NCBI RefSeq assembly: GCF_044324875.1
Contig: NZ_CP172185.1
Reading direction: 5' to 3' (one strand)
Source of the DNA: Escherichia coli
GTDB taxonomy: Bacteria; Pseudomonadota; Gammaproteobacteria; Enterobacterales; Enterobacteriaceae
DNA: 64,000 nt
Numbering within the stretch: position 1 is the stretch's first letter; each line of letters starts with the position of its first letter. Below, piece after piece: positions 16,222 through 58,811 of this stretch. Below the pieces are notes generated by a model. The model did not search any database. It was not told the DNA's origin and saw only the letters and a program-made list of their open reading frames with translations. The translations under genes were made by a program, and so were the position numbers.

Positions 16222-16497
16222 CTATCGCACAGGATGAATAAGATAATTCGCCTTTGTCGAAAAAGGGGGCGTAATGTCTTCTGTGAGATTTAATGGTGGC
16301 GCATCTTCTCTCAACTTAAACAAAATCGCCTGTGATGGCTGAAGTTTTGTAGAATGAGTTGTCGTCATCACTGACGTTTTCTCTGTCTCTTTATAGCTCG
16401 TCTCACTTCCACCACCGGAAATGGAAAATGCAAAAACATTGCATGCCATAATAGAGACCAATAAAAATAAGCTAAAAAGCATTAAGTTTACTTTCAT
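16222..16497 (-). CDS. ypdI: Putative lipoprotein YpdI
   Basis: 91-aa ORF with signal peptide and lipobox-like ...SIMAC; synteny. Confidence 0.75.
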   Translation of the reverse strand: MKVNLMLFSLFLLVSIMACNVFAFSISGGGSETSYKETEKTSVMTTTHSTKLQPSQAILFKLREDAPPLNLTEDITPPFSTKANYLIHPVR

Positions 16498-16639
16498 AGA
16501 AAGTTATCCTGAATATGGTTCACTGAGAACTTACGATGTTATGGCTGTATTTACATTTAATTAATCAGTATTTACATCGATATAATAAATGACATCTCTT
16601 TGTGGTATATAAGAATAGTTCTCTGCGACAGGAAGCATA

Positions 16640-16657
16640 TTCCTACAATTGTAAGAC
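16640..16657. promoter_or_regulatory. EvgA-box-like inverted repeat upstream of yfdX
   Basis: ttcctacaATtgtaagac matches the recalled EvgA consensus TTCYTACA-N2-TGTARGAA. Confidence 0.55.
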
Positions 16658-16792
16658 TAAAATACTTCTTGCGATAATAACTACAGCTGTAAGATAACCC
16701 TTTCAAAATGACCGTTGCTCTCTGATTTCTCATTTCATGCTCACCCAATATGATGGCGGCGTTTTCTAAAACTGTTAAAGAATGAGGTAAGT

Positions 16793-17425
16793 ATGAAACG
16801 TTTAATTATGGCTACGATGGTCACAGCAATTCTGGCATCTTCAACTGTATGGGCGGCTGATAATGCACCGGTAGCGGCACAACAGCAAACTCAGCAAGTT
16901 CAGCAAACCCAGAAAACGGCAGCAGCAGAGCGTATCTCTGAACAAGGTTTATATGCGATGCGTGACGTGCAGGTAGCGCGCCTGGCTCTGTTTCATGGCG
17001 ATCCGGAAAAGGCAAAAGAACTGACCAATGAAGCTTCAGCTTTGTTGTCAGATGACAGTACCGAATGGGCAAAGTTCGCTAAGCCAGGTAAAAAGACCAA
17101 TGTCAATGATGACCAATATATTGTCATTAATGCATCTGTCGGAATTTCTGAGAGTTATGTAGCTACACCCGAAAAAGAAGCCGCGATAAAAATTGCCAAC
17201 GAAAAAATGGCGAAAGGGGATAAAAAGGGCGCAATGGAAGAGCTGCGCCTGGCCGGTGTTGGCGTAATGGAAAACCAATATCTGATGCCGCTCAAACAGA
17301 CTCGTAATGCACTTGCTGATGCGCAGAAACTGCTTGATAAAAAGCAATACTACGAGGCAAACCTGGCGCTTAAAGGTGCGGAAGATGGAATCATCGTCGA
17401 TAGCGAAGCACTGTTTGTGAACTAA
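16793..17425 (+). CDS. yfdX: Periplasmic protein YfdX (EvgA regulon)
   Basis: 210-aa ORF with signal peptide; synteny upstream of frc. Confidence 0.85.
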
Positions 17426-17668
17426 CGCTGACAGGCAGTATATTGAGGTAAAGGATTTAACTCCCTCCAGCCGACAATTTTTTATGACCACAATACGACA
17501 GGTTGTGGTCATAAAATTATTTGGCGCTCGCGGTTCTATAAACTCGCATTTTATCTTCCTCAAAGTAAACCGCAATAATCCCGTGTCATCACAAATCATT
17601 TATTATGTTATGTTTTATGGTACGCTTTAAAAAGCGTAATCATACCCTTACTTGTAAATCACCGGCGC

Positions 17669-17686
17669 TTCTTACAGTTGTAAGAA
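17669..17686. promoter_or_regulatory. EvgA box upstream of frc
   Basis: Perfect ttcttacaGTtgtaagaa inverted repeat about 250 bp upstream of the frc start. Confidence 0.6.
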
Positions 17687-17936
17687 TAACATCACAAATG
17701 TCGCGGCTCTCTCTGATTACCGCGAACCAATATTTATCATATTCTTCTTTTCGTCCTCACTACTTACCATGCAGAAAGGAATTGGAAGTAGCGATGAAAT
17801 GATTTTCAGTACTTGATACAGGAATTTAAAAATATCGAGTGCAGCTACGACGATATTTTGCGGATTATTTATAGAGGCGTTATGTCTTAAATAAACGCTA
17901 AATTAACACATATTTAATTAACTAATAGGTATTGCT

Positions 17937-19187
17937 ATGTCAACTCCACTTCAAGGAATTAAAGTTCTCGATTTCACCGGTGTGCAATCTGGCCCATCTT
18001 GTACTCAAATGCTGGCCTGGTTTGGCGCTGACGTCATTAAAATTGAACGTCCCGGCGTTGGTGACGTAACGCGTCACCAGCTGCGAGATATTCCTGATAT
18101 CGATGCGCTTTACTTCACCATGCTTAACAGTAACAAACGTTCTATTGAATTAAATACCAAAACAGCGGAAGGCAAAGAGGTAATGGAAAAGCTGATCCGC
18201 GAAGCTGATATCTTAGTCGAGAACTTTCATCCAGGGGCCATTGATCACATGGGCTTCACCTGGGAGCATATTCAAGAAATCAATCCACGTCTGATTTTTG
18301 GTTCGATCAAAGGGTTTGATGAGTGTTCGCCTTATGTGAATGTAAAAGCCTATGAAAACGTTGCTCAGGCAGCGGGTGGCGCGGCATCCACTACGGGTTT
18401 TTGGGACGGTCCGCCGCTGGTAAGCGCTGCAGCGTTGGGTGACAGCAACACCGGAATGCATTTACTGATCGGTTTACTTGCTGCTTTGCTGCATCGCGAA
18501 AAAACGGGGCGTGGGCAACGAGTCACCATGTCAATGCAGGATGCCGTATTGAACCTTTGCCGCGTGAAATTACGCGACCAGCAGCGTCTCGATAAATTGG
18601 GTTATCTGGAAGAATACCCGCAGTATCCGAATGGCACATTTGGTGATGCAGTTCCCCGCGGAGGTAATGCGGGTGGTGGCGGTCAGCCTGGCTGGATCCT
18701 GAAATGTAAAGGCTGGGAAACCGATCCTAACGCCTATATTTATTTCACTATTCAGGAGCAAAACTGGGAAAACACCTGTAAAGCCATCGGCAAACCAGAT
18801 TGGATTACCGATCCGGCATACAGTACAGCCCATGCCCGACAGCCACATATTTTCGATATTTTTGCTGAAATCGAAAAATACACTGTCACTATTGATAAAC
18901 ATGAAGCGGTGGCCTATTTGACTCAGTTTGATATTCCTTGTGCACCGGTTTTAAGTATGAAAGAAATTTCACTTGATCCCTCTTTGCGCCAAAGTGGCAG
19001 TGTTGTTGAAGTGGAACAACCGTTGCGTGGAAAATATCTGACAGTTGGTTGTCCAATGAAATTCTCTGCCTTTACGCCGGATATTAAAGCTGCGCCGCTA
19101 TTAGGTGAACATACCGCTGCTGTATTGCAGGAGCTGGGTTATAGCGACGATGAAATTGCTGCAATGAAGCAAAACCACGCCATCTGA
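17937..19187 (+). CDS. frc: Formyl-CoA:oxalate CoA-transferase
   Basis: 416-aa family III CoA-transferase ORF; synteny with oxc. Confidence 0.92.
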
Positions 19188-19240
19188 TATTAACGGGGGC
19201 TTCTGGCTCCCAATTTATAAAAATTTCGAGGTTATTAATC

Positions 19241-20935
19241 ATGTCAGATCAACTTCAAATGACAGATGGTATGCATATCATCGTTGAAGCATTAAAACAG
19301 AATAATATTGACACTATTTATGGTGTTGTAGGTATTCCTGTGACGGATATGGCACGCCATGCCCAGGCGGAAGGCATTCGTTATATTGGTTTTCGTCATG
19401 AGCAGTCGGCAGGCTATGCCGCTGCGGCAAGCGGTTTTCTTACCCAAAAACCAGGGATCTGCCTGACAGTGTCTGCGCCAGGATTCCTCAATGGTTTGAC
19501 CGCATTGGCCAACGCAACGGTAAATGGTTTTCCGATGATCATGATTAGCGGCTCCAGCGACCGCGCGATCGTCGACCTACAGCAAGGTGATTATGAAGAG
19601 CTGGACCAAATGAATGCGGCAAAACCGTATGCCAAAGCAGCATTTCGCGTTAATCAGCCGCAGGATCTTGGCATTGCATTGGCACGCGCTATCCGGGTCT
19701 CAGTATCGGGTCGCCCTGGCGGAGTTTATCTTGATTTGCCTGCAAATGTCCTGGCCGCGACGATGGAAAAAGACGAAGCGTTAACCACGATTGTAAAAGT
19801 TGAAAATCCGTCGCCAGCATTATTGCCATGCCCGAAGTCAGTCGCTAGCGCAATTTCGCTTTTAGCAAAAGCTGAACGACCATTAGTTATCCTTGGCAAA
19901 GGCGCGGCGTATTCACAAGCGGATGAACAGCTTCGTGAATTTATTGAAAGTGCCCAGATTCCATTCCTGCCAATGTCTATGGCGAAAGGGATCCTCGAAG
20001 ATACACATCCACTTTCTGCGGCAACTGCGCGTTCGTTTGCCCTGGCAAATGCTGACGTTGTCATGCTTGTTGGTGCACGACTGAATTGGTTACTGGCACA
20101 CGGTAAAAAAGGATGGGCGGCAGATACACAGTTTATTCAACTGGATATTGAACCGCAGGAAATTGACAGCAACCGCCCCATTGCTGTGCCAGTCGTTGGC
20201 GATATTGCATCCAGTATGCAAGGTATGCTGGCAGAACTGAAACAAAACACATTTACGACTCCACTGGTATGGCGCGATATTTTAAATATCCACAAGCAGC
20301 AAAATGCACAAAAAATGCATGAAAAATTAAGTACAGATACTCAACCATTAAATTACTTTAATGCATTAAGTGCTGTGCGCGATGTATTGCGCGAGAACCA
20401 GGATATTTATTTAGTTAATGAAGGTGCAAATACCCTGGATAATGCACGAAATATTATTGATATGTATAAACCACGTCGCCGTCTGGATTGTGGTACCTGG
20501 GGTGTCATGGGCATCGGTATGGGCTATGCCATCGGTGCTAGCGTGACCTCTGGTTCTCCGGTTGTCGCCATTGAAGGTGATAGTGCTTTTGGTTTCAGTG
20601 GGATGGAGATTGAAACGATTTGTCGATATAACCTGCCGGTGACGATCGTTATTTTTAATAATGGCGGCATCTACAGAGGAGACGGTGTTGATCTCAGTGG
20701 CGCTGGTGCACCATCACCAACAGATCTATTGCACCATGCAAGGTATGACAAATTAATGGATGCGTTTCGTGGCGTTGGCTATAACGTCACTACGACAGAT
20801 GAACTTCGTCATGCTTTAACCACCGGTATTCAGTCGCGCAAACCGACCATTATTAATGTGGTCATCGACCCTGCAGCAGGAACTGAAAGTGGCCATATTA
20901 CCAAACTTAACCCAAAACAAGTCGCTGGTAATTAA
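19241..20935 (+). CDS. oxc: Oxalyl-CoA decarboxylase (ThDP-dependent)
   Basis: 564-aa ORF with ThDP-binding motif (GDSAFGFSGME...NNGGIY). Confidence 0.92.
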   Translation: MSDQLQMTDGMHIIVEALKQNNIDTIYGVVGIPVTDMARHAQAEGIRYIGFRHEQSAGYAAAASGFLTQKPGICLTVSAPGFLNGLTALANATVNGFPMIMISGSSDRAIVDLQQGDYEELDQMNAAKPYAKAAFRVNQPQDLGIALARAIRVSVSGRPGGVYLDLPANVLAATMEKDEALTTIVKVENPSPALLPCPKSVASAISLLAKAERPLVILGKGAAYSQADEQLREFIESAQIPFLPMSMAKGILEDTHPLSAATARSFALANADVVMLVGARLNWLLAHGKKGWAADTQFIQLDIEPQEIDSNRPIAVPVVGDIASSMQGMLAELKQNTFTTPLVWRDILNIHKQQNAQKMHEKLSTDTQPLNYFNALSAVRDVLRENQDIYLVNEGANTLDNARNIIDMYKPRRRLDCGTWGVMGIGMGYAIGASVTSGSPVVAIEGDSAFGFSGMEIETICRYNLPVTIVIFNNGGIYRGDGVDLSGAGAPSPTDLLHHARYDKLMDAFRGVGYNVTTTDELRHALTTGIQSRKPTIINVVIDPAAGTESGHITKLNPKQVAGN

Positions 20936-21004
20936 ATACTGACATCGTCTCCTCTTGCCAACTCATTATGCGATGGTGAGGGGACCCTTATCGGAAATAC
21001 TATT

Positions 21005-21949
21005 ATGCTAACATTTTTTATTGGCGATTTATTGCCTATTATCGTAATCATGCTGTTGGGTTATTTTAGCGGCAGACGAGAAACTTTTTCAGAAGATCAA
21101 GCCCGGGCATTTAATAAACTGGTATTAAACTACGCTCTTCCTGCGGCTCTATTTGTATCTATTACCCGGGCAAACAGGGAAATGATTTTTGCGGACACTC
21201 GTCTGACCCTTGTATCACTTGTGGTTATTGTCGGATGTTTCTTTTTCTCCTGGTTCGGTTGCTACAAATTTTTTAAACGTACTCATGCAGAAGCAGCAGT
21301 ATGTGCATTAATTGCAGGTTCACCTACCATTGGATTCCTGGGATTTGCAGTTCTCGATCCTATTTATGGTGATTCCGTATCAACAGGTTTAGTGGTAGCA
21401 ATTATTTCAATTATCGTTAACGCAATTACTATTCCTATTGGTCTGTATTTGCTGAATCCCTCCTCAGGAGCGGATGGTAAGAAGAATAGTAATCTGAGCG
21501 CATTAATTTCTGCGGCAAAGGAGCCAGTAGTATGGGCACCTGTTCTGGCAACGATCCTGGTGTTGGTTGGGGTAAAAATTCCGGCAGCATGGGACCCAAC
21601 CTTTAATCTGATTGCGAAGGCTAACTCAGGGGTAGCGGTATTCGCTGCGGGGTTGACTCTGGCTGCACATAAATTCGAGTTCAGTGCCGAAATTGCTTAT
21701 AACACCTTCCTGAAGCTAATTCTGATGCCACTGGCGCTGCTTCTCGTTGGTATGGCATGTCATTTGAACAGCGAACATTTGCAGATGATGGTACTGGCAG
21801 GCGCCTTACCGCCGGCATTCTCCGGAATCATTATTGCCAGCCGGTTTAATGTCTACACCCGCACTGGTACAGCGTCACTGGCTGTGAGCGTACTGGGCTT
21901 TGTCGTCACGGCTCCTTTGTGGATTTATGTCAGTCGACTGGTTTCATAA
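21005..21949 (+). CDS. yfdV: AEC-family membrane transporter YfdV
   Basis: 314-aa polytopic membrane ORF; synteny. Confidence 0.85.
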
Positions 21950-21977
21950 TTAATCATGTTATTGATTTTACATAAAT

Positions 21978-22008
21978 GCCGAAGTGTCTTTTCACCTTCG
22001 GCTTTTTT
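21978..22008 (+). terminator. Rho-independent terminator after yfdV
   Basis: gccgaag...cttcggc hairpin followed by tttttt; lies inside the 5' extension of the track ORF for yfdE, supporting the internal yfdE start. Confidence 0.6.
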
Positions 22009-22022
22009 CAAGGCATAAGCAA

Positions 22023-23168
22023 ATGACAAATAATGAATGCAAAGGGCCGTTTGAAGGCTTATTAGTTATCGATATGACACATGTCCTTAATGGACCTTTC
22101 GGAACTCAACTTCTTTGTAATATGGGCGCAAGGGTAATTAAAGTTGAGCCGCCGGGTCATGGTGATGATACCCGCACATTTGGTCCCTATGTGGATGGAC
22201 AGTCACTCTATTACAGTTTTATTAATCATGGCAAAGAGAGTGTGGTTCTTGATTTAAAGAATGATCACGATAAAAGTATATTTATAAATATGCTTAAACA
22301 AGCTGATGTATTAGCTGAGAATTTTCGCCCAGGTACAATGGAAAAACTGGGGTTTTCATGGGAAACGCTACAAGAAATCAACCCGCGTCTCATCTATGCT
22401 TCATCGTCAGGTTTTGGGCATACCGGCCCGCTAAAAGATGCTCCAGCCTACGATACCATCATTCAGGCAATGAGCGGGATAATGATGGAAACAGGGTACC
22501 CTGATGCTCCGCCAGTGCGCGTGGGTACCTCTCTTGCGGATTTATGTGGCGGTGTCTATTTATTCAGTGGAATAGTGAGTGCACTTTATGGCCGCGAAAA
22601 GAGCCAGAGAGGGGCGCATGTCGATATAGCGATGTTTGATGCCACGCTGAGTTTTCTGGAGCATGGTCTGATGGCATATATTGCGACAGGGAAGTCACCA
22701 CAACGTCTGGGAAATCGCCATCCCTACATGGCACCTTTTGATGTTTTTGATACTCAGGATAAGCCGATTACTATTTGTTGTGGTAATGACAAGCTTTTTT
22801 CTGCGTTATGCCAGGCACTGGATCTGACGGAGCTGGTTGATGATCCCCGATTTATCAGCAATATTTTACGCGTACAAAACCAGGCTATTCTTAAACAATA
22901 TATTGAGCGAACGTTAAAAACGCAGGCAGCTGAAGTTTGGTTAGCCAAAATACATGAAGTTGGTGTGCCCGTCGCGCCGTTATTAAGTGTGGCTGAGGCC
23001 ATTAATTTGCCACAAACTCAGGCGAGAAATATGTTGATTGAAGCCGGAGGAATAATGATGCCAGGTAATCCGATAAAAATCAGCGGCTGCGCGGACCCGC
23101 ATGTTATGCCGGGAGCGGCAACGCTCGACCAGCATGGGGAACAAATTCGCCAGGAGTTCTCATCATAA
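22023..23168 (+). CDS. yfdE: Acetyl-CoA:oxalate CoA-transferase (family III)
   Basis: Internal start MTNNECKGPFEGLLVIDMTHVLNGPFG (~381 aa); paralogous to Frc; synteny. Confidence 0.88.
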   Translation: MTNNECKGPFEGLLVIDMTHVLNGPFGTQLLCNMGARVIKVEPPGHGDDTRTFGPYVDGQSLYYSFINHGKESVVLDLKNDHDKSIFINMLKQADVLAENFRPGTMEKLGFSWETLQEINPRLIYASSSGFGHTGPLKDAPAYDTIIQAMSGIMMETGYPDAPPVRVGTSLADLCGGVYLFSGIVSALYGREKSQRGAHVDIAMFDATLSFLEHGLMAYIATGKSPQRLGNRHPYMAPFDVFDTQDKPITICCGNDKLFSALCQALDLTELVDDPRFISNILRVQNQAILKQYIERTLKTQAAEVWLAKIHEVGVPVAPLLSVAEAINLPQTQARNMLIEAGGIMMPGNPIKISGCADPHVMPGAATLDQHGEQIRQEFSS

Positions 23169-23223: not shown

Positions 23224-26200
23224 TTAGTCATTTCGTTGACAGAAAACAGCTATCTCCTGGTCCAGCTCTGCAATGTGTTCTTTAACAGAGTTCAGCAGCT
23301 GAAGAATTTCAGGCTTACTGTCATCTGAAACAGGTGTTATTTCTAACTGATGGCTAATATTAATCAACTTTTGCAAATTCAGGATGTTAGCCGCACCGTG
23401 GATGCGATGAATACACTGATGGAAAGTTCTGTTGTCGCCAGCTTCTAGTGCATGAAACGCAGCGGGTAGATCTTTATGCGTTTCATGCTGGAAAGTCATG
23501 AGAATCTCCTGCATCAGTTGTAGATCGTTCGCCGTATTATTTTTCAGGGCCTCGATATCAAGGTGGCGATACTGAGGTGCAATAGGCGCAACCTGGTGTA
23601 ACTGACTTAAATGTGTTTTCAGTACATCCAGGGTCAACGGTTTGAACAAACATAAGTTCATGCCGCAATTTAACCCTTTTTCACGTTCGTTAGCCTGTGC
23701 GTTGGCTGTAAGCCCCCAGATGGGTAAGGAAGAATTTTGCTCACGGAGTTTGCGAGTCAACTCAAAACCATCCATATTCGGCATATTAACGTCAGTAATA
23801 AGCAGGTCATAATGTTGCATACTGACTTTGTGTAGCGCTTGCACACCATCAGTTGCTTCATCAACATCATATCCTAATAGGTTTAGCTGGCGTTTGAGTA
23901 ATAGCCTGTTGGTCGGATGATCATCCGCGATTAATATGCTCAACTTTTCAGGGAGTGTCATGGGTTGTTCTGCTTTTGCCTCGACAGTCGCCACTTGTTG
24001 GGTAATTTCTACCGGGATTGTGATCGTAAATGTCGTTCCTATGCCTGGATGACTTTCTAATGACAAATCGCCCTGCATGTTTTTAATTAATTCTTTGCAG
24101 ATCATTAAGCCTAAACCAGAACCTGTTTGCTGACGACCTGCACTTGTTTGGCTATAGCGTTTAAACAGTTGTTGTTGTTCTTCCTGTGATAATCCACTTC
24201 CAGAATCCATAATCGTCATTTTGATTACAGCGTGGTTGTCATCAATGTTAACCAGGGAGGTCGTAATTTTTACTGCCCCCTCGGTGGTAAATTTGAGAGC
24301 ATTGCTCAGTAAATTAGATAAGACCTGCTTAAACGCCTGAGGGTCGATCTTAACCAGGTAATGTTCAGGAAACGTACTGCTGCAACTTAATGCGATCGAT
24401 TTGCTTGCAGCAATCGCACCGAAAGAGTGACAAGTGTTCTGGACTAAAGTAGGGATATCGACCCATTGTGGTTGAAGTTGATAGTTACCCGACTCAATTT
24501 TGTCGACATCAAGGATTTCACCAATTAAGCCGAGGAGTGATTGTCCGGTGGCGTAGGCAAGTGAAATCGCCTCCACCCGTTGTTCCTTGCTAAGACCAGA
24601 ACCCGACAGAAGTTCCAGGAAGCCCATAATGGAGCTTATTGGTGTTCTTATTTCGTGACTCATTGTTGCCAGAAACTGACTTTTTGCGACAGTTGCATTG
24701 ATCGCTTTATTTCTCTCTACTTCGAGAGCGTGAATTAAATCACGCGTCTCGGTAATATCTTGCCAACCACAAATATAAACAGCATGATCGCTGGCTGGCA
24801 GATTGCATAATGTATGCCAGTGATTAATGCATCTTTTCTCGATGCCATTATCAATTTCAAATACCTGTGTGTATATTGTTCGATTTTCTTTCGTTTCTGC
24901 TGTGACTTCATGCGCATTAGAAAAAACATCTTTAAAGGGTGAGTCACTGTTTTCTAATGGTAACATTGCATTTTTGTAGTAATCCGCAGTGAAATAATGT
25001 TCAAAAGCACTATTATGACTAATGACATTACCTTGCCAGTTTACAACATAAGTTGGATTCGGTAAGGAATCCGAGAGTGCTTTTCGGAATGATATTTGGT
25101 TTTCTAAATCACCCTGAATGACTTTACGACGACGAACTGAGCGTAACAGGTAGAATCCCCATAAAAGGCTACTGCCAACTAATAAAACGGATAATGTCGT
25201 GACAATATAAAATTGCTCGCTATAGAGGTCCCATGTGTCAATGGTCACATTGGGCATTTTAATCCATTTTTCCGTCAGGCGCAGAACTTCGCTTGGGGGA
25301 ATTGCATTCAGTGCTTTATTAATAATATCCTTAAGTTCCGGTTCTCCGCGAGGAAAAGCGAACGAAAGCGATGCATTCGGAACGCCGGGAATAAGAAAAT
25401 GATAAAGTTCATTAGGATAGTAATGGTCGATCATGTAACGTGAATTTAACTGTGTCGCGACCAGAGCATCAAGTTCGCCTTCCTTGACCTTGTGAAATGC
25501 AGCGCTGGCGTTATCGACTTTTATCCACTCTACCTCCGGATACATCTCTTTTAATTGCGAATGAAGCTCATAATAATAGGGAATGGCAACTTTCATTCCT
25601 TTTTTTAATGTTTGTTCACTGTCAGGCGCTTTTTGCATGACAAAAACGTAAGGCGTTGTTATGAAGGCTTCAGCAAATAAAACATTATTTTCTCTATCTT
25701 CACTATAAATAGCGGCGGGCAATATATCCCATCCACCGGGGTTAAGCTGTGTCCCCGCATGAATATTGTGTGAAACGGTGATCGGAGAAAAATTTAAACC
25801 TGTTTGCAAGGTAATAATATTAAGAATATCACCCATCACGCCCCGAACTGAGCCAGTTTCATCTGTCATAGAATAGGGTGGCGAGTAAGGATTTTCCAGC
25901 ACCTTTAAATCGGGATGCTGCTTAATCCACTGTTTTTCATGTTCAGTGAGTTCTAATGGTTTGTTCAGAAAGGCCAGGTTTCCTGTATCAAGCCAATTTT
26001 GTGATACTTCATAGCGAACTTCATTTGTTAAAGCATCAACAAATCGATTGAGTACTTCATTAAGAACGACTGAATCTTTTCTGGTTAAGAAAAAGTTATA
26101 TTGACGCGGCGAGTTATAATATTTCACTACATTTAAGGAGTGAGTGAAATAGCGGGAAATCATACTGCTGGTAATAATGTTACTACCAATAAAGTAATCA

Positions 26201-26817
26201 TTCTGTCCGGCTGAGACGGATGCTAATGCCTGATATAAATTTGTAAAAGAGATAATTGTTGCTTTTGGAAATGATTGATGAATTACCTCATCTGGAGGGT
26301 AATTTGCTACCCGAGCAATATTTACTGGTTTTGATGAGGTAAGCGGTCTCATTGAATCGTGAAGGGTGGTGACCAGCGCCGGAAAGGTAATTATCAGCGG
26401 TTTGGTTGCAGCAATGTCATCATTAAGAGGCGGCGAAGCAACTAAATGTGATAACACTATATCGACTTCCCCTTCTGTAAGCGCGTCCATTGCTTTTTGA
26501 TGATCTGCGTATTCCCGGAGTGTTAATTTGATATTTAACGCTCTTTTTAAAAGATTTAAATAATCAGCATTAATACCACGAACCCGTTGCTGCGAATCGG
26601 TATGCAACAAAGTAGCCGTTTGGGACTTGTGTACTGCAATCACAAGATTTTTTTTGCTCGCTAACCAACGTAATTCCTTGTTGCTCAGACGTAGTGGATC
26701 AAGCGTGACACGGTTGTTACTACTGATGCCACGATATTCGATGTAATCTTCGTCTGCGAAACTTATGGTCGACCAAAGACCACAACAGAGAAGAATAATA
26801 TAGGGTAAAAACTTCAT
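23224..26817 (-). CDS. evgS: Hybrid sensor histidine kinase EvgS
   Basis: 1197-aa ORF: two periplasmic binding-protein-like domains, HisKA/ATPase, receiver and HPt domains; adjacent to evgA. Confidence 0.95.
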   Translation of the reverse strand: MKFLPYIILLCCGLWSTISFADEDYIEYRGISSNNRVTLDPLRLSNKELRWLASKKNLVIAVHKSQTATLLHTDSQQRVRGINADYLNLLKRALNIKLTLREYADHQKAMDALTEGEVDIVLSHLVASPPLNDDIAATKPLIITFPALVTTLHDSMRPLTSSKPVNIARVANYPPDEVIHQSFPKATIISFTNLYQALASVSAGQNDYFIGSNIITSSMISRYFTHSLNVVKYYNSPRQYNFFLTRKDSVVLNEVLNRFVDALTNEVRYEVSQNWLDTGNLAFLNKPLELTEHEKQWIKQHPDLKVLENPYSPPYSMTDETGSVRGVMGDILNIITLQTGLNFSPITVSHNIHAGTQLNPGGWDILPAAIYSEDRENNVLFAEAFITTPYVFVMQKAPDSEQTLKKGMKVAIPYYYELHSQLKEMYPEVEWIKVDNASAAFHKVKEGELDALVATQLNSRYMIDHYYPNELYHFLIPGVPNASLSFAFPRGEPELKDIINKALNAIPPSEVLRLTEKWIKMPNVTIDTWDLYSEQFYIVTTLSVLLVGSSLLWGFYLLRSVRRRKVIQGDLENQISFRKALSDSLPNPTYVVNWQGNVISHNSAFEHYFTADYYKNAMLPLENSDSPFKDVFSNAHEVTAETKENRTIYTQVFEIDNGIEKRCINHWHTLCNLPASDHAVYICGWQDITETRDLIHALEVERNKAINATVAKSQFLATMSHEIRTPISSIMGFLELLSGSGLSKEQRVEAISLAYATGQSLLGLIGEILDVDKIESGNYQLQPQWVDIPTLVQNTCHSFGAIAASKSIALSCSSTFPEHYLVKIDPQAFKQVLSNLLSNALKFTTEGAVKITTSLVNIDDNHAVIKMTIMDSGSGLSQEEQQQLFKRYSQTSAGRQQTGSGLGLMICKELIKNMQGDLSLESHPGIGTTFTITIPVEITQQVATVEAKAEQPMTLPEKLSILIADDHPTNRLLLKRQLNLLGYDVDEATDGVQALHKVSMQHYDLLITDVNMPNMDGFELTRKLREQNSSLPIWGLTANAQANEREKGLNCGMNLCLFKPLTLDVLKTHLSQLHQVAPIAPQYRHLDIEALKNNTANDLQLMQEILMTFQHETHKDLPAAFHALEAGDNRTFHQCIHRIHGAANILNLQKLINISHQLEITPVSDDSKPEILQLLNSVKEHIAELDQEIAVFCQRND

Positions 26818-26821
26818 GTGG

Positions 26822-27436
26822 TTAGCCGATTTTGTTACGTTGTGCGAATGTGTAAAGATCCATCAGTGATTTACATTCTAATTTTTCCATCAGGCGACTT
26901 TTATAAGTGCTGACAGTTTTGTTGCTGATGAACATTTTTTCCGCAATGTCATTATTATCCTTGCCATCAAGAATATATCGCATGACACTAATTTCTTGTT
27001 TCGATAAGGAGTCGAGTTTTTGCTGGTCGGACGTTAAACTTCCAACAAACCGGTTGAGAGAGAAGGGGAAATAGCAGTAGCCATTTTTTGCAGCTTCAAT
27101 AGCCGCAATGATATTGTTCATGCCTTCTTTTTTACTCACGAAACCATTAGCGCCAGCATCAGCACAATGTTTCCCGTAAAAATGGTCATTTTTAGCGGAG
27201 ACGATAATAATAATTCCGCTATATTGGCGCTTCCTCAGCGTTTCTAACACCTGGATACCGTTAACTCCGGGGATATCGACATCAATGATGACGATATCAG
27301 GTTTAAGTGTTTCCACCCGCTGAACGGCACTTCCCCCTTCAGTCAACTCCGCTAAGATTTCAATATCGTTTTTGATCAATAAATTACGAATTGCTGCGAT
27401 AGCAAGAGGATGGTCATCAATAATTATTGCGTTCAT
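26822..27436 (-). CDS. evgA: Response regulator EvgA (NarL/LuxR family)
   Basis: 204-aa ORF with receiver domain and C-terminal LuxR-type HTH; synteny. Confidence 0.95.
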   Translation of the reverse strand: MNAIIIDDHPLAIAAIRNLLIKNDIEILAELTEGGSAVQRVETLKPDIVIIDVDIPGVNGIQVLETLRKRQYSGIIIIVSAKNDHFYGKHCADAGANGFVSKKEGMNNIIAAIEAAKNGYCYFPFSLNRFVGSLTSDQQKLDSLSKQEISVMRYILDGKDNNDIAEKMFISNKTVSTYKSRLMEKLECKSLMDLYTFAQRNKIG

Positions 27437-27660
27437 AGATTATTCCCTTTGCAATGAAGCATCTCCCTTCTCCCTGTAGTAATACAGACATAAGGCATCA
27501 TCTCATTTTCTCAATAAAAATAAGAAAATTTGAGCTTCCTTTAAGATAATTCGACAAGTATACCATATAAATAGTCGGCATAAATGAAATGTCAACAATA
27601 AAATCAGGGATTGTACCGATGATTTATAGTTTCACATTAGCACTATAAGTCTTCTCACTA

Positions 27661-27678
27661 ATCCTACAGGCGTAAGAA
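27661..27678. promoter_or_regulatory. EvgA-box-like inverted repeat in the evgA-emrK divergent intergenic region
   Basis: atcctacaGGcgtaagaa, two mismatches to the recalled EvgA consensus. Confidence 0.4.
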
Positions 27679-27851
27679 TTGTATTGCAAAAGCCACGGTT
27701 TAGTCCTCTGTTGTTTTTTTTGCACCTCATTTAAATTAGGCCTCCAACGTTCCTGGGACAATGTGCAACACATGCACTGTGTTTGATATGAAGCATGAAT
27801 ACTCTTTTCATTCAATTCATAAATTTCATCTATGCGAAATGAGAGATAATA

Positions 27852-29015
27852 GTGGAACAGATTAATTCAAATAAAAAACATTCTAACAGAAGAAAATACT
27901 TTTCTTTATTGGCGGTAGTTTTATTTATTGCGTTTTCAGGTGCCTATGCCTATTGGTCAATGGAATTAGAAGACATGATTAGTACAGATGACGCCTATGT
28001 CACGGGGAATGCAGATCCAATTTCTGCACAAGTTTCAGGCAGCGTCACTGTCGTTAATCATAAAGATACGAACTACGTTCGACAGGGTGACATTTTAGTC
28101 TCACTGGATAAGACTGATGCCACTATCGCACTCAATAAAGCTAAAAATAATCTGGCCAATATTGTTCGGCAAACGAATAAACTGTACTTACAGGATAAAC
28201 AATACAGTGCCGAAGTCGCTTCAGCACGTATTCAGTATCAACAATCTTTAGAAGATTATAACCGTCGTGTACCTTTAGCGAAGCAGGGGGTTATTTCAAA
28301 AGAAACGCTGGAGCATACCAAAGATACGTTAATAAGTAGCAAAGCGGCATTGAATGCTGCTATTCAGGCTTATAAAGCGAATAAAGCTTTAGTAATGAAC
28401 ACACCATTAAACCGTCAGCCACAAGTCGTTGAAGCGGCGGATGCAACCAAAGAAGCCTGGTTGGCGCTTAAACGTACGGATATTAAGAGTCCGGTTACCG
28501 GCTATATTGCCCAGCGAAGTGTTCAGGTCGGCGAAACAGTGAGTCCCGGACAATCGTTAATGGCTGTCGTACCGGCACGTCAAATGTGGGTTAATGCTAA
28601 CTTTAAAGAAACACAACTCACGGATGTACGGATTGGTCAATCGGTCAATATTATCAGCGATCTTTATGGTGAAAATGTTGTGTTTCATGGTCGGGTGACA
28701 GGGATCAATATGGGAACCGGCAATGCGTTCTCCTTATTACCTGCACAAAATGCGACAGGGAATTGGATCAAAATCGTTCAGCGTGTACCGGTTGAGGTTT
28801 CTCTTGATCCAAAAGAACTCATGGAACATCCCTTGCGTATTGGTTTATCGATGACTGCAACTATTGATACCAGGAACGAAGACATTGCCGATATGCCCGA
28901 TCTGGCTTCAACCGTGACGTCCATGCCTGCTTATACCAGTAAGGCTTTAGTTATCGATACCAGTCCGATAGAAAAAGAAATTAGCAACATTATTTCGCAT
29001 AATGGACAACTTTAA
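27852..29015 (+). CDS. emrK: Multidrug efflux membrane fusion protein EmrK
   Basis: 387-aa HlyD-family ORF; start-stop overlap with emrY. Confidence 0.92.
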   Translation: MEQINSNKKHSNRRKYFSLLAVVLFIAFSGAYAYWSMELEDMISTDDAYVTGNADPISAQVSGSVTVVNHKDTNYVRQGDILVSLDKTDATIALNKAKNNLANIVRQTNKLYLQDKQYSAEVASARIQYQQSLEDYNRRVPLAKQGVISKETLEHTKDTLISSKAALNAAIQAYKANKALVMNTPLNRQPQVVEAADATKEAWLALKRTDIKSPVTGYIAQRSVQVGETVSPGQSLMAVVPARQMWVNANFKETQLTDVRIGQSVNIISDLYGENVVFHGRVTGINMGTGNAFSLLPAQNATGNWIKIVQRVPVEVSLDPKELMEHPLRIGLSMTATIDTRNEDIADMPDLASTVTSMPAYTSKALVIDTSPIEKEISNIISHNGQL

Positions 29016-30553
29016 TGGCAATCACTAAATCAACTCCGGCACCATTAACCGGTGGGACGTTATGGTGCGTCACTATTGCATTGTCATTAGCGACGTTTAT
29101 GCAAATGTTGGATTCCACTATTTCTAACGTCGCAATACCGACAATATCTGGCTTTCTGGGAGCATCAACAGACGAAGGCACCTGGGTTATCACTTCGTTT
29201 GGTGTAGCAAATGCCATTGCGATCCCTGTTACCGGCAGGTTGGCACAAAGAATAGGCGAATTAAGATTATTTTTACTTTCAGTAACCTTTTTTTCGCTAT
29301 CTTCATTAATGTGTAGCCTATCGACCAATCTTGATGTGCTGATATTTTTTAGAGTCGTTCAGGGGTTAATGGCGGGGCCGTTAATTCCACTGTCACAGAG
29401 TTTATTATTAAGGAATTATCCGCCAGAAAAAAGAACATTTGCTCTGGCATTATGGTCTATGACCGTGATTATCGCTCCGATATGTGGGCCGATATTGGGC
29501 GGTTATATTTGTGATAACTTTAGCTGGGGTTGGATATTTTTAATCAATGTCCCTATGGGGATTATCGTCCTGACATTATGCTTAACCTTACTTAAAGGAA
29601 GAGAAACTGAGACTTCACCGGTCAAAATGAATCTGCCAGGACTGACCCTGTTAGTGCTCGGTGTTGGTGGCTTGCAAATTATGCTTGATAAAGGGCGCGA
29701 TCTGGATTGGTTCAACTCGAGTACAATAATAATACTAACAGTAGTGTCAGTTATTTCTCTGATTTCTTTAGTCATTTGGGAGTCGACCTCAGAGAATCCG
29801 ATTCTTGATCTCAGTTTGTTTAAGTCCCGTAATTTCACCATTGGTATTGTGAGTATCACATGCGCATATTTATTTTACTCTGGGGCGATAGTCCTTATGC
29901 CGCAGTTACTCCAGGAAACGATGGGGTATAATGCGATATGGGCCGGACTTGCCTATGCGCCCATCGGCATCATGCCGCTATTAATATCACCTTTGATAGG
30001 ACGTTATGGCAACAAAATTGATATGCGGTTGTTGGTGACATTTAGTTTTTTAATGTATGCGGTTTGCTATTACTGGCGTTCTGTGACATTTATGCCAACG
30101 ATTGATTTTACAGGCATCATTTTGCCACAGTTTTTTCAGGGATTCGCCGTCGCCTGTTTCTTTTTACCCTTAACAACGATTTCGTTTTCAGGCTTGCCAG
30201 ATAATAAATTTGCCAATGCCTCGAGTATGAGTAATTTTTTTCGTACCTTGTCAGGATCAGTTGGTACGTCGTTGACAATGACGCTGTGGGGACGACGAGA
30301 ATCATTACACCATAGTCAGTTGACAGCAACCATCGATCAATTTAACCCCGTGTTTAATTCATCGTCACAAATTATGGATAAATATTATGGTTCGCTTTCA
30401 GGGGGTCTTAATGAAATTAATAATGAAATAACTCAGCAGTCACTTTCAATTTCTGCAAATGAGATTTTCCGTATGGCGGCTATTGCTTTTATCTTACTTA
30501 CAGTTTTGGTTTGGTTTGCGAAACCGCCGTTTACAGCGAAAGGTGTTGGGTGA
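29015..30553 (+). CDS. emrY: MFS multidrug efflux pump EmrY
   Basis: 512-aa 14-TM MFS ORF. Confidence 0.92.
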   Translation: MAITKSTPAPLTGGTLWCVTIALSLATFMQMLDSTISNVAIPTISGFLGASTDEGTWVITSFGVANAIAIPVTGRLAQRIGELRLFLLSVTFFSLSSLMCSLSTNLDVLIFFRVVQGLMAGPLIPLSQSLLLRNYPPEKRTFALALWSMTVIIAPICGPILGGYICDNFSWGWIFLINVPMGIIVLTLCLTLLKGRETETSPVKMNLPGLTLLVLGVGGLQIMLDKGRDLDWFNSSTIIILTVVSVISLISLVIWESTSENPILDLSLFKSRNFTIGIVSITCAYLFYSGAIVLMPQLLQETMGYNAIWAGLAYAPIGIMPLLISPLIGRYGNKIDMRLLVTFSFLMYAVCYYWRSVTFMPTIDFTGIILPQFFQGFAVACFFLPLTTISFSGLPDNKFANASSMSNFFRTLSGSVGTSLTMTLWGRRESLHHSQLTATIDQFNPVFNSSSQIMDKYYGSLSGGLNEINNEITQQSLSISANEIFRMAAIAFILLTVLVWFAKPPFTAKGVG

Positions 30554-34898: not shown

Positions 34899-34906
34899 AA
34901 CAGGGG

Positions 34907-51116: not shown

Positions 51117-52682
51117 TCAGTGGTAGTAGCCCGGACCACGCAGGTTTTCATGCTCTGAAGCATATGCCGGATGTTGTTCGCCCTGGCGGGATAATGGAAG
51201 CTCCAGGTTCTCCCGATGGTGACGCAGCAGATTGTCGATAAAGCGTCTGTCAGGGGCGTTATAGTGCAGGGCAACGTAACAGGCCTTTTCCAGCCGTTCC
51301 GGGCCGTATTTTTTCTGAAGTGCCAGCAGCCCCAGAACTGCACGATAAGCCAGTTCCGGATGGGGTTTTGCCTTCAGCATGGATTCAACCACCCGGCCTG
51401 TGGACGGGCCCGTACGTTTTCCCTGCTCGATCAGGCGTTCCGGTGTCCATGTCCCGTGCTGCCGGTGGCGCTCTGGCATGTGAAGCGGATTGGTTGTGTG
51501 TTTATATTCATGTGTGCTGCGCGGATGTTGCGCCACACACTGCCCCTTGTGCCAGAGCTGTACCACCGACTGCCCCGCCTTCAGTGACAGACGCTGACCG
51601 ACCAGTTCGTGTGGAACGGAGTACCAGTGACGGGCATATTCAACGTGGTAGTCAGGGCCAACCTTCACAGCTTTGTATTCCGTGTATTCATAAGGTGCCA
51701 GAGGCAGCGGAGAGAGTGCTGGCGCATCCAGTATGCGGAAGCGTTCTGCACGGGTTTGATTGCCGTACCCCTTCATTGGCCGGTTATTCATGTCTGTCAG
51801 TAACTCCCTAAGGCGCGCATTCAGCGCCCTGAGCGTGTGGAAGGTTTCATTACGGATGCGGGCAAGAAGCCATCGTTCAACGATGAGGACGCCGTTTTCT
51901 GCTTTTGGTTTATCTTTAGGTTTGCGTGGTCGGGCCGGGATGATAACCGTGCCATAGTGCTCAGCCAGTGCCTGATAACTGTCGTTGATGACAGGCTCAT
52001 ATCGATCGGCCTTTTTCACTGCGCTTCTGAGGTTATCGGGGATGAGCAGCTTCGGTACGCCGCCCAGGAAGGTCAGGCAACGGCTGTGGGCATTTAACCA
52101 TGACATCATGTCCTGACCTTCGCACGCTTCAACGTAGGTATAGTTGGACGCCCCCATTACGGCCACGAAGATTGCCACGCGGCGTATCTCACCGGTGTCC
52201 GGATTAATAACAGGAACCGTAGGACCACAGAAGTCGATAAAAAGCTTTTCGCCGGCACGATGCTCCTGGCGCATGGAGAGACGTCGCGTTTTTTTCCACT
52301 CCCGGTAGCAACGGCAGAAGTGCGAGTATCCCATCGCTTTGTTACCCGCCTGTGCCTTGTATTCCATCCACAACAGTTGCCGCGTCACACCTGGTTTTCT
52401 CATTTCCGTATCGAAGTACAACATGTCAGGCATTACAAGCTCTGATGCAAAGGTGTCTTTGGGCGGAAAAATGAGTTTCTCCAGCGTGTCATGGGATATA
52501 TCAGCAGGTAATGGCCATGACAGAGAAGAGGCTTTGAAGCGGGCAAGAACCTCAAAAACGGTTGAGGCGCTGATGTGTAACGTCAGTCCGATACAACGGT
52601 TAGTCAGCTTCTTGTCGAACTTGAGCTGAAGGATCTTAAAACAGGTTTCCATAGTGCTCCTGGATTTTCTCTTTCTGGACAT
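51117..52682 (-). CDS. istA: IS21-family transposase IstA
   Basis: N-terminal HTH then DDE integrase core; likely ATG start at about 52682 (MSRKRK..., with GGAGA RBS) or 52652 (METCFK...); the track start at 52763 is a TTG. Confidence 0.8.
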   Translation of the reverse strand: MSRKRKSRSTMETCFKILQLKFDKKLTNRCIGLTLHISASTVFEVLARFKASSLSWPLPADISHDTLEKLIFPPKDTFASELVMPDMLYFDTEMRKPGVTRQLLWMEYKAQAGNKAMGYSHFCRCYREWKKTRRLSMRQEHRAGEKLFIDFCGPTVPVINPDTGEIRRVAIFVAVMGASNYTYVEACEGQDMMSWLNAHSRCLTFLGGVPKLLIPDNLRSAVKKADRYEPVINDSYQALAEHYGTVIIPARPRKPKDKPKAENGVLIVERWLLARIRNETFHTLRALNARLRELLTDMNNRPMKGYGNQTRAERFRILDAPALSPLPLAPYEYTEYKAVKVGPDYHVEYARHWYSVPHELVGQRLSLKAGQSVVQLWHKGQCVAQHPRSTHEYKHTTNPLHMPERHRQHGTWTPERLIEQGKRTGPSTGRVVESMLKAKPHPELAYRAVLGLLALQKKYGPERLEKACYVALHYNAPDRRFIDNLLRHHRENLELPLSRQGEQHPAYASEHENLRGPGYYH

Positions 52683-53233
52683 TGACGTCTCCACTGGTTT
52701 AAACACGGCAATGGAGACTGTGGTGAAAAGAGTTAATTCCCGGAGTGACTGGCAGGATGCCAATCAATGATCGGAAGCATGCCAAATCGTGATCGATTGT
52801 GATGCCAAACTGTGATCGGAGATGGATGCCAAATCATGATCGATTCGAATGCCAAACTGCGATCGATTCAGATGCCATTTTGCATCTTACTGGTGTGAAA
52901 TTTGACCTATTATATCTTCTGCCGCCCCCTCTGGCTGTATCAAATAAACCCGCAGCAGTCGCCGCGTATTACGGACGGACGCACCGTTCCCATGCTCACT
53001 CGTCACATTCCCCGTATCAGTTTCTCTTACCGTAAGAACGGCTCTGGCTGGCGATAAAACTAACCCGGTCGGGCATTCCCACAGTCTTTAGAGAAAATGT
53101 AATTTACCCCCTGAAACGCGGGCTGTTCCCCCGTCACCTGCGCGCGAAAAACTCACCGTTTTTTGTGCACGCACGAAATCGCCCTCCGGGCGCGCCAGTA
53201 CTGGGCCGGATGGGCAAAAAGTTACTCTAAAAA

Positions 53234-53263
53234 ATTGTGCAAATTTGTGCACTTTTGTGCAGA
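53234..53263. repeat. Three tandem 10-bp repeats with TTGTGCA core
   Basis: attgtgcaaa-tttgtgcact-tttgtgcaga, exact 10-bp periodicity; a fourth TTGTGCAC lies about 70 bp upstream. Confidence 0.5.
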
Positions 53264-53487
53264 TGGACAATAGCGTCAAAAAGAGTGCTTTTGAGAGATT
53301 TTTTATGGCAACTGCGCCGCGTGTATTACGTTTTTTACCATCCCCGCCGCGCATGTACATACTTCATTTTTCTGCCAGACAACAGGGCAACTCCCCGTGA
53401 CTGACAGCCCCAAAAAATCAATGATTGATGTTGCATTTTTGTTAAAGGTTAGACCAGTTGTTTTGGGGCTCTGCCTCATAATCCGGT

Positions 53488-53804
53488 GGGGGGTGCGCAA
53501 ACCGGTTACAACGGTTACAACACTCAAAAACACCACTTAACAGCATGATTTTAATGGATATTGTTTGTAACCGCTTTGCGGTTACACTGCGGTTACAACG
53601 GTTACAGGTTTCAAAAAGTACTTTATTATCAATCAATTAAAAACTTAACCTGTAACCGCCTGTAACCTAACAAAACGGTTACATGTAACCGCGTTGTAAC
53701 CGCTTTTGTAACTCATCGGACCAGTTATAATATATTGATATATAATACAAAAATAAGTAATTTTAAATTTGTAACCGTTGTAACCGCTTTGCGCACCCCC
53801 CCCC
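53488..53804. repeat. Iteron cluster (about 12 GGTTACA/TGTAACC heptamers) bounded by about 33-bp inverted repeats, with AT-rich core; candidate replication origin (ori/crr-like)
   Basis: Left arm ggggggtgcgcaaaccggttacaacggttacaac and right arm gttgtaaccgttgtaaccgctttgcgcaccccccccc are reverse complements; AT-rich segment about 53726-53770; G6 and C9 homopolymer tracts at the ends. Confidence 0.6.
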
Positions 53805-54052
53805 AAACTTTAGCGCGACCCTTTAAAATGTTAATTAAACTCACTTACTCTGTATCTCTCTAGTTAACTCTCTGTTATTGAAATGTATCTCTCCACTGTT
53901 TCACTCTTTCTGATAATCAGGGGAAGCAAAAAATTGATGGCGGCACTACTGCAATATGGCCACCATTGCATTGCTGTTACCGTTGGTTCTGGCCAACAAA
54001 AAAGGTCAGCGGGAAACTGACCTCTTTTGCTGTGAATGCGGCGTTCTGCGGG

Positions 54053-55057
54053 TTACTCTGCTGGCTCTTTTTCTTCGGTGATCACTATGTTGGCTACCGG
54101 GTTAAATCTCATGGCATCTGCCAGATAATCCGGTGCAAAATGTGCGTATGCCATAGTCTGCTGAATTGTCGCATGCCCAAGGATTTTTTGTAGCGCAAGA
54201 ATGTTGCCACCGTTCATCACAAAGTGACTGGCGAATGTATGCCGCAATACATGCGCAGCCTGCCCCCTCGGTAAATCGGGTTTTATTTTTTTTAATGCCC
54301 GGCAAAACTCTCTGTACTTCACATCAAACAGTCGCCCGGTTTCTTTTGTTTTTACGGCATCGCATATTTCCTGCGACACAGGCACCGTTCTTTTTCTACC
54401 GTTTTTGGTTTCCAGAAACGTTATTCTGTTATGAACTATTTGCTCTCCATGCAATCTGCTGGCCTCACTCCAGCGGGCTCCGGTACAAAGACACAAGAGC
54501 GCAACCCTTCGTTGATCTCCATTCAGCCCGTCAAGCAACAATGTGACCTCGTTTTTTGATAAAAAGGCCATTTCCCGCTGCTTTACATAAAGAACAGGAA
54601 TACCACGAACCGGATGCTCTGCATCCCACAAACCGATCTTTTTCAGGGCTGTAAACATCCCCGATAATCTGTTCATGTATCTGTTTGCTGAGGACGGCTT
54701 TAATCCTTCCGCAATTTTCTGCGATCGCCATGCAATGATTTTTAATTTGTTGAGTTCTGCCGCAAACATGTCAGCTCCAAGCTCATTAATAATTTTGCCA
54801 AGTTGCTGTTTATCCGTGTTTGCCTTTCGCCTGTGCTGACCGTGATAGACCCACCACAATTCCAGTAAATCGCTAAGCGTTCTCCGGTCGCGATAGCCCT
54901 GTATAAACTCGCGCTTTTCGGCGTTCGCTATGATGTACCGTTCAGTTGCTGTAGCTATCGATTTTTTGTCAAATATTCTTCTGATGCGCTTCCCTTTACG
55001 TCCGCATGGCCTGATATCGAGCAGCCACCGCCCATCATGCATCTTTCTGATCGGCAT
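54053..55057 (-). CDS. Tyrosine recombinase, P2/186-type integrase family
   Basis: From MPIRKMHDGRWLLDIRPCGRKGKRIRR; C-terminus GQAAHVLRHTFASHFVMNGGNILALQKILGHATIQQTMAYAHFAPDYLADAMRFNP closely resembles the recalled phage 186 integrase; start lies 2-3 nt after the primase stop. Confidence 0.8.
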   Translation of the reverse strand: MPIRKMHDGRWLLDIRPCGRKGKRIRRIFDKKSIATATERYIIANAEKREFIQGYRDRRTLSDLLELWWVYHGQHRRKANTDKQQLGKIINELGADMFAAELNKLKIIAWRSQKIAEGLKPSSANRYMNRLSGMFTALKKIGLWDAEHPVRGIPVLYVKQREMAFLSKNEVTLLLDGLNGDQRRVALLCLCTGARWSEASRLHGEQIVHNRITFLETKNGRKRTVPVSQEICDAVKTKETGRLFDVKYREFCRALKKIKPDLPRGQAAHVLRHTFASHFVMNGGNILALQKILGHATIQQTMAYAHFAPDYLADAMRFNPVANIVITEEKEPAE

Positions 55058-55059
55058 GT

Positions 55060-57753: not shown

Positions 57754-57777
57754 CTTTTGCCGTGGGGTTTTTATTAA

Positions 57778-58077
57778 TTACTCGTTACTTATTGCTTTGG
57801 CAATCCCGGCGGTTTCAGCACTATGCCATGAAAAAATTCCGCCAGAAGTATGCATTCCTGACTTAATCACTCGTAATTCCCGATAAAGAATGTTAGTTAA
57901 TGATTCCATTTCATTAATTTGCACTGGCATTCTCTCACTGGTATTAATTTCACCTGTCAATGCTGAAAGGAGCGCAATAACATTTATTACATCTTCAAGA
58001 TTCTGAATGGAATCTTCCGTGAAAAAACCAGCGTATTCTTTTTTGTATATATTGCGGATATTCTGATTTTCAGACAT
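57778..58077 (-). CDS. Hypothetical protein (99 aa), satellite small-ORF operon
   Basis: ORF co-directional and closely spaced with the primase; no recognisable domain. Confidence 0.4.
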   Translation of the reverse strand: MSENQNIRNIYKKEYAGFFTEDSIQNLEDVINVIALLSALTGEINTSERMPVQINEMESLTNILYRELRVIKSGMHTSGGIFSWHSAETAGIAKAISNE

Positions 58078-58144
58078 AAAAACTCCCCGACCCGTTAAGA
58101 TCGAAATATAAATTTAATTCAGTTATCAGTTGGTAATTCGGTAA

Positions 58145-58363
58145 TCAGTCGGAAAGCTGCGTCACCTTCAACGCTTTGAAATGTGTCATTCCCAGCTCTT
58201 CCAGCCCTTCGGCTGCGCGGCGTATGGCTTCGCCCGGTCCCGTTCCGTATACCGTTGCATGTGCATGTTTGGTTAACCCACGTTTATTAACGGCATAACC
58301 CAACACAAAGAAACGTTTTTCACCACTGCCATTATTTTTACGGGATATTGAACGGCTTTTCAT
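58145..58363 (-). CDS. Hypothetical protein (72 aa)
   Basis: Start overlaps the stop of the upstream ORF (ATGA); operon context. Confidence 0.4.
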   Translation of the reverse strand: MKSRSISRKNNGSGEKRFFVLGYAVNKRGLTKHAHATVYGTGPGEAIRRAAEGLEELGMTHFKALKVTQLSD

Positions 58364-58548
58364 TTCTTCACCTTTACCACTGATGCTGTGAGTTCTTCTT
58401 CTGGCAATTGATATTTCGGCGCAATTTCTTCCGTATACCTGATAGCGTCCCTTGCCGCTTTTCCTTTTGATTTATATTTACGTATCGTGTGGAAGTTTTC
58501 TTCCTCTCCTGTTACCACATTACGCAATTTAATATGAATCTCGTACAT
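58360..58548 (-). CDS. Hypothetical protein (~62 aa)
   Basis: Likely start MYEIHIKLRNVV; track ORF 58360..58578 extended; operon context. Confidence 0.4.
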   Translation of the reverse strand: MYEIHIKLRNVVTGEEENFHTIRKYKSKGKAARDAIRYTEEIAPKYQLPEEELTASVVKVKK

Positions 58549-58550
58549 CG

Positions 58551-58811
58551 TTACCCCTCCATGATTTTTACTGCGCATTTGTGGGTTAATCGCCCCTGTT
58601 TGTCATTGCGGGAATATGCCATACGACAGGCATCACGCCATACATCGTCATAAGTCGGATATTCCCGGGAATGAATCATCTGGCGAACGTCGCCGTTCTG
58701 GTAGTTAATCAGGGTGATAAGGAGCTTAAACATGGCACGCCTCCCGGACACGGATACGGGCAACAAAGACCAGACGAGATGCCGGAAGCAGGGCGCGCGC
58801 TTCGCGCTCAC
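58551..58811 (-). CDS. Hypothetical protein (60-86 aa)
   Basis: ORF in the operon between alpA and the primase; overlaps the next ORF, exact start unclear. Confidence 0.3.
   Translation of the reverse strand: MSAKRAPCFRHLVWSLLPVSVSGRRAMFKLLITLINYQNGDVRQMIHSREYPTYDDVWRDACRMAYSRNDKQGRLTHKCAVKIMEG

Follow-up and report, generated by a model that had tools for sequence, protein, structure and literature searches.

EvgA boxes upstream of yfdX, frc and emrK in an Escherichia coli chromosome, with a weaker second site at yfdX

The closest well-studied homologue of EvgAS is BvgAS, and the BvgA operators of Bordetella are inverted heptads (TTTCCTA). The two systems resemble each other in their proteins, a NarL/FixJ-family regulator and an unorthodox hybrid kinase, as well as in their DNA sites, which are inverted repeats with a TTCCTA-like half-site. 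BvgA promoters combine strong upstream sites with weaker promoter-proximal ones, and several adjacent dimers occupy them with a spacing of about 22 bp, down to the -35 element. NarL sites of the "7-2-7" type provide a second parallel, with inverted half-sites, an unspecified 2-bp spacer and binding by a dimer of the GerE/LuxR-type helix-turn-helix, although NarL differs from EvgA in its half-site (TACYYMT versus TTCYTACA), its regulon and its signal. For EvgA itself, the AlignACE analysis of Masuda and Church in 2003 is said to have found an 18-bp inverted repeat upstream of six of seven directly regulated operons, and this repeat was reportedly gel-shifted by EvgA.

The binding of EvgA to inverted repeats through which yfdX and yfdWUVE are induced is described in the passage of PMC3720670 that cites Masuda & Church 2003, and direct binding to the emrKY promoter in the passages of PMC9496106 and PMC8174306 that cite Kato 2000. 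PyfdX-yfp and PemrK-yfp serve as direct reporters of phosphorylated EvgA, and EvgS1 as well as low pH elicits a response from both promoters (PMC5706723). In an evgS constitutive mutant, frc was the most strongly induced gene, and EvgA sites occur solely at known direct targets (PMC4283999). The motif string itself gave no match in our literature search.

We analysed a 64-kb stretch of an E. coli chromosome, called the window throughout, in which the gene order is alaC, lpxP, yfdY, ypdI, yfdX, frc, oxc, yfdV, yfdE, evgS (minus strand), evgA (minus strand), emrK, emrY and dsdA. Gene identities were checked against annotated E. coli genomes, and the 4 kb around the boxes are matched in 5,423 of 5,426 complete E. 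coli genomes. Scanning the whole window for TTCYTACA-N2-TGTARGAA, an 18-bp inverted repeat, returned exactly three matches with at most two mismatches, all of them intergenic and located before yfdX, frc and emrK (Table 1). An earlier note on this DNA had placed inverted repeats at these very positions, in front of yfdX and frc and in the evgA-emrK region, and the scan bears this out, with one, zero and two mismatches, respectively. The same note described the frc site as a perfect palindrome. This holds for the 8-nt arms, which a repeat finder scored as 100% complementary around a 2-nt gap, but not for the central GT, which is not self-complementary; the site is therefore a perfect inverted repeat rather than a strict 18-bp palindrome.

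Table 1. Boxes, candidate promoter elements and genes of the EvgA locus (window coordinates), with two K-12 elements for comparison
Feature	Coordinates	Strand	Sequence	Remarks
EvgA box, yfdX distal (site 1)	16640-16657		TTCCTACAATTGTAAGAC	1 mismatch; starts 153 bp before yfdX ATG (16793)
Weaker EvgA-box-like site (site 2)	16678-16695		TAACTACAGCTGTAAGAT	3 mismatches; 38 bp downstream of site 1
EvgA box, frc (yfdW)	17669-17686		TTCTTACAGTTGTAAGAA	0 mismatches; 268 bp before frc ATG (17937)
EvgA box, imperfect, evgA-emrK intergenic	27661-27678		ATCCTACAGGCGTAAGAA	2 mismatches; 191 bp before emrK start (27852)
Alternative candidate yfdX promoter	16649-16678	+	TTGTAA; TGcGATAAT	TTGTAA in site 1, 18-bp spacer, extended -10; putative
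Candidate yfdX -10 hexamer	16749-16754	+	TATGAT	starts 62.5 bp downstream of site 2 centre; putative
Candidate frc -10 cluster	17735-17745	+	TATCAT, CATATT, TATTCT	57.5-62.5 bp downstream of box centre; putative
Candidate emrK -10 hexamer	27732-27737	+	TAAATT	62.5 bp downstream of box centre; putative
Candidate safA -10 hexamer (K-12)			TATATT	
Candidate yegR -10 hexamer (K-12)			TATTAT	
yfdX	16793-17425	+		210 aa, Pfam YfdX; EvgA-activated gene
Terminator-like hairpin 3' of yfdX	17480-17516	+		splits yfdX and frc transcription units
frc-oxc-yfdV-yfdE	17937-23168	+		formyl-CoA transferase, oxalyl-CoA decarboxylase, transporter, acetyl-CoA:oxalate CoA-transferase; every ORF full length
evgS	23224-26817	-		sensor kinase, 1197 aa
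evgA	26822-27436	-		response regulator, 204 aa
emrK-emrY	27852-30553	+		efflux pump operon; EvgA-activated target

None of the three boxes differs at any base from the 18-mer that K-12 MG1655 carries before the same gene, and the operons downstream of them (yfdX, frc-oxc-yfdV-yfdE and emrKY) are all documented as direct targets of EvgA activation. They are the same sites as those described in K-12, where EvgA boxes are known for ydeP, safA(b1500)-ydeO, yegR, yfdX, yfdW(frc)UVE and emrKY (Masuda & Church 2003; Kato et al. 2000; Itou et al. 2009); the differences from K-12 consist of SNPs in the flanking intergenic sequence, the spacer of site 2 (GC here, AC in K-12) and 26 substitutions in EvgS. 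When the K-12 ydeP-safA and yegR regions were scanned, the motif was also recovered upstream of ydeP (2 mismatches), safA (1) and yegR (1), which places it at all six documented direct EvgA targets.

That the repeats are chance palindromes, or sites of another LuxR/NarL-type regulator such as RcsB, is extremely improbable. Dinucleotide shuffles of the window gave an expectation of 0.03 matches with at most two mismatches, against the 3 observed, and none of 100 shuffles reached 3, which excludes chance. RcsB deserves consideration, given that Yfdx is RcsB-dependent in Klebsiella (PMC6394985), but the literature assigns binding to EvgA, and the occurrence of the motif at all six direct EvgA targets argues against RcsB as it does against chance. 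The RcsAB box does have TCCTA/TAAGA-like half-sites that resemble the repeats; however, they stand in the opposite relative orientation.

For a test of conservation, the three intergenic regions were aligned across 10 genomes, comprising the window, K-12, CFT073, an O157:H7 strain, an APEC O1 strain, four other E. coli and L003, a divergent Escherichia labelled E. coli (contig NZ_JAATUR010000016.1) whose EvgS and EvgA are 90.9% and 97.5% identical to those of the window. Half-site positions varied at 5 of 64 columns, the weak fourth site included, versus 245 of 1149 for the other intergenic columns (Fisher p=0.004, on 10 non-independent sequences), and the unspecified central dinucleotide varied at 4 of 8 columns. 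Constrained half-sites around a free spacer are the pattern expected when a protein reads each half-site and leaves the 2 bp between them unread, and the free variation of the central NN fits the 7-2-7 mode of NarL. At site 1, variation was confined to position 6 (in one strain) and spacer position 10, and at the frc box to spacer position 10. On a larger scale, the 40-mer centred on the frc box was present in 5,406 of 5,426 genomes and that of the emrK box in 5,397 of 5,426; of the 5407 E. coli records matching the former, 4176 did so at 99% identity or more. L003 keeps all four box sites. Its emrK box (19729-19746), TTCCTACAGGTGTAAGAA, matches the consensus perfectly, in contrast to the two mismatches of E. 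coli, so that the mismatches in the window represent the common E. coli allele rather than damage.

With their identity to the K-12 sites, the published binding, the motif at the other targets and the conserved half-sites, the reading of these repeats as EvgA boxes proposed in the earlier note is upheld, and they are very probably operators of the EvgS/EvgA acid-response phosphorelay. EvgS would phosphorylate EvgA, which belongs to the NarL/FixJ family and has a LuxR-type helix-turn-helix. A phosphorylated EvgA dimer would then occupy each 18-bp inverted repeat, one helix-turn-helix per 8-bp half-site (TTCYTACA), without reading the 2-bp spacer, and the bound regulator would activate the downstream promoter. 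The expected outputs are the periplasmic protein YfdX, oxalate-dependent acid tolerance through frc-oxc-yfdV-yfdE, and the EmrKY efflux pump. What the window can be taken to establish in this scheme is the sequence, position and conservation of the sites and the identity of the regulator; binding and activation are taken from the K-12 literature. The boxes are members of the known, already published EvgA-box family, an assignment that is correct but ordinary, and, the local EvgA circuit being the textbook K-12 arrangement, they offer nothing new in themselves. What is new is minor, namely the additional site at yfdX, a shared box-to-promoter spacing and a 38-bp duplication polymorphism, which may concern users of PyfdX as an EvgA reporter and students of cis-regulatory variation.

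The imperfect box sits between two divergent starts, that of evgA (27436, minus strand) and that of emrK (27852), and most likely serves emrKY, not evgAS. Its position between divergent operons would also suit a shared operator that autoregulates evgAS, and early EvgA-overexpression arrays reportedly listed evgAS among the EvgA-dependent operons. Such a dual role is nevertheless improbable: evgAS expression is reported as not autoregulated in the passage of PMC8174306 that cites Eguchi 2003, and evgA mRNA in Shigella is described in the literature as unchanged under inducing conditions. In the evgA direction, near-consensus sigma-70 elements (TTGACA; TGgTATACT) start about 95 bp past the box, versus about 62 bp at the activated promoters.

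This distance of about 62 bp emerged from a comparison of the EvgA promoters. In five of the six, a -10-like hexamer begins 61.5-62.5 bp downstream of the box centre, ydeP being the exception; the arrangement was matched in 47 of 2000 shuffles (p about 0.02), a modest and post hoc result. The candidate hexamers, including those of K-12 safA and yegR, are given in Table 1; of the frc cluster, TATTCT is the one at this distance. The common spacing suggests that EvgA may act in a class-I-like manner from a box centred near -74, some 62 bp before the -10 element. Consensus scans for sigma-70 promoters did no better than shuffles (7 found versus 4.3 expected; 1 versus 2.3) and are unable to place activator-dependent promoters. 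Literature searches for the start sites of yfdX, frc and emrK and for ChIP-type EvgA data gave nothing usable.

At yfdX, the spacing is provided by a second, weaker box that the earlier note had missed and that we have not seen described (site 2). It was also recovered as a direct repeat by the repeat finder and shares its box-to-"-10" spacing with the other EvgA promoters. Matches with three mismatches are expected 0.73 times per window, which puts the chance expectation for one lying no more than 60 bp from a true site at about 0.004 (0.73 x 360/64000). Site 2 was present in all 10 aligned strains, where it varied at both spacer positions, at position 2 (L003) and at position 18 (OW1E2), and the candidate -10 hexamer TATGAT at 16749 was invariant. 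The element CTCTGATT occurs exactly 33.5 bp downstream of the centres of both site 2 (16720-16727) and the frc box (17711-17718), and this common spacing suggests that the yfdX and frc promoters are paralogous or have an unrecognised element in common. Taken together, the geometry suggests that the weak site 2 may be the promoter-proximal operator of yfdX and that the strong site 1 would lie around -112. No further convincing sites were found in the three intergenic regions by a scan allowing up to five mismatches and a search for isolated half-sites.

A different geometry has to be weighed at this promoter. The strong site 1 could be the working site of a class-II activator, its right half covering the -35 hexamer (TTGTAA), followed by an 18-bp spacer and the extended -10 TGcGATAAT at 16670-16678; site 2 would then lie over the transcription start and be incidental or repressive. 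A consensus scan found this promoter with 9 of 12 matches plus a TG, and in the 10 strains its hexamers and TG are invariant, the spacer between them being the most variable stretch of the region. The frc, emrK, safA and yegR boxes, however, show no -10-like element at the corresponding distance, the half-sites of site 2 are kept across strains, the divergent L003 included, and the 33.5-bp distance to CTCTGATT is common to site 2 and the frc box. We regard the class-II arrangement as a real possibility but a lesser one.

A two-operator system at yfdX can be imagined as well, in which the weak site 2 stands at the activating distance, the strong site 1 recruits EvgA from 38 bp upstream, and the 38-bp unit varies in copy number. 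In its complete form this proposal is rather doubtful. Its layout recalls the strong upstream and weaker promoter-proximal sites of BvgA promoters; in contrast to the BvgA spacing of about 22 bp between several adjacent dimers, the yfdX promoter has two sites spaced by 38 bp, and one site is present at each of frc and emrK.

Variation in the 38-bp unit is found in other E. coli genomes. Strain UMB200201_11 carries a 38-bp tandem duplication (locus L088, 10743-10836, equivalent to 16640-16695 of the window) that results in three boxes at 38-bp spacing, of which the middle one is a chimera, TAACTACAATTGTAAGAC, with the left half of site 2 and the right half of site 1. The duplication is absent from the window. 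Of 5,426 complete E. coli genomes, 414 contain a match of 100% identity to a 40-mer spanning the duplication junction, and a single genome can hold as many as three such junctions. Sites 1 and 2 are identical at 14 of 18 positions, and unequal recombination between them may account for the variable copy number envisaged in the two-operator proposal. If so, the polymorphism would make the dosage of EvgA boxes at yfdX a source of natural cis-regulatory variation, beyond the known variation in EvgS.

At frc, an unusually conserved block (17687-17830) and a long leader come after the box, with 268 bp from box to ATG; the K-12 ydeP box lies at a similarly long distance from its ATG (261 bp). A 15-codon ORF-like stretch (MQKGIGSSDEMIFST*) occupies positions 17769-17816 of this block, with no obvious Shine-Dalgarno sequence. 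A search of positions 16400-18000 against Rfam returned just a sub-threshold match at the yfdX terminator hairpin, so that the long 5' region of frc contains no leader or sRNA of a known kind.

The claim of the earlier note that the regulon is intact in this strain stands for its local part: the boxes are present, and yfdX, frc, oxc, yfdV, yfdE, evgS, evgA, emrK and emrY are all full length. Since ydeP, safA-ydeO, yegR and gadE lie outside the 64-kb window, the judgement extends to this local part only; safA-ydeO is missing from some natural strains, for example MP1. EvgA is identical to the K-12 protein at 204 of 204 residues, with its Response_reg and GerE (LuxR-type helix-turn-helix) domains. 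EvgS is identical to K-12 at 1171 of 1197 positions, hence the 26 substitutions mentioned above, and it keeps F577, so that it is not the constitutive evgS1 allele. At the sequence level, the part of the EvgA circuit found in the window, from regulator and kinase ORF to the three operators and their target operons, is intact, in the textbook K-12 arrangement. The 9-codon leader ORF evgL (MLHCKGNNL*, 27433-27462, minus strand; K-12 annotation b4781), which overlaps the evgA start codon, is intact as well.

Intact boxes do not predict acid-inducible resistance, because pH sensing varies among the EvgS alleles of natural strains, and most of the B2 strains tested were unresponsive (Roggiani et al.). 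The EvgS of the window differs from that of CFT073 at 26 positions, the same number as from K-12, and from that of an O157 strain at 19. Most of the changes from K-12 are shared with CFT073, and many with B2 strains that are unresponsive to pH; judged by its substitutions, the allele is intermediate between the K-12 and the non-responsive B2 types.

A species scan based on frc, with one genome per species, yielded among the matches listed one Escherichia locus; the others came from Moellerella, Providencia and distant taxa, and neither E. albertii nor E. fergusonii was part of the species sample. The closest non-Escherichia frc loci among the matches listed were those of Moellerella and Providencia (86% Frc identity). 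They retain frc-oxc-yfdV, and the loci examined contained neither yfdX nor evgAS nor a box, a co-occurrence in favour of the EvgA reading. Within E. coli, yfdE, intact in the window, is annotated as frameshifted in the O157:H7 strain H6437 (locus L084, 16130-17271).

In K-12, the stretches that follow the safA and ydeP boxes resemble each other (…TCCGC.CA…TGAAGC…AGTC.TATTT…; locus L090, 6072-6089 and 8731-8748), and these two EvgA promoters look like duplicates.

Elsewhere in the window, the region 3' of dsdC (about 34900-45730) carries two invertase genes, ipuB and ipuA, together with a 2637-aa ORF (37817-45730), annotated in a near-identical genome as the phase-variable autotransporter adhesin UpaE. 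One further match to the motif, with three mismatches (42495-42512), was attributed to chance because it falls inside this ORF. The UpaE ORF is followed, at about 46800-64000, by a lambdoid prophage with torI, bet, gam, exo, replication genes and Q.
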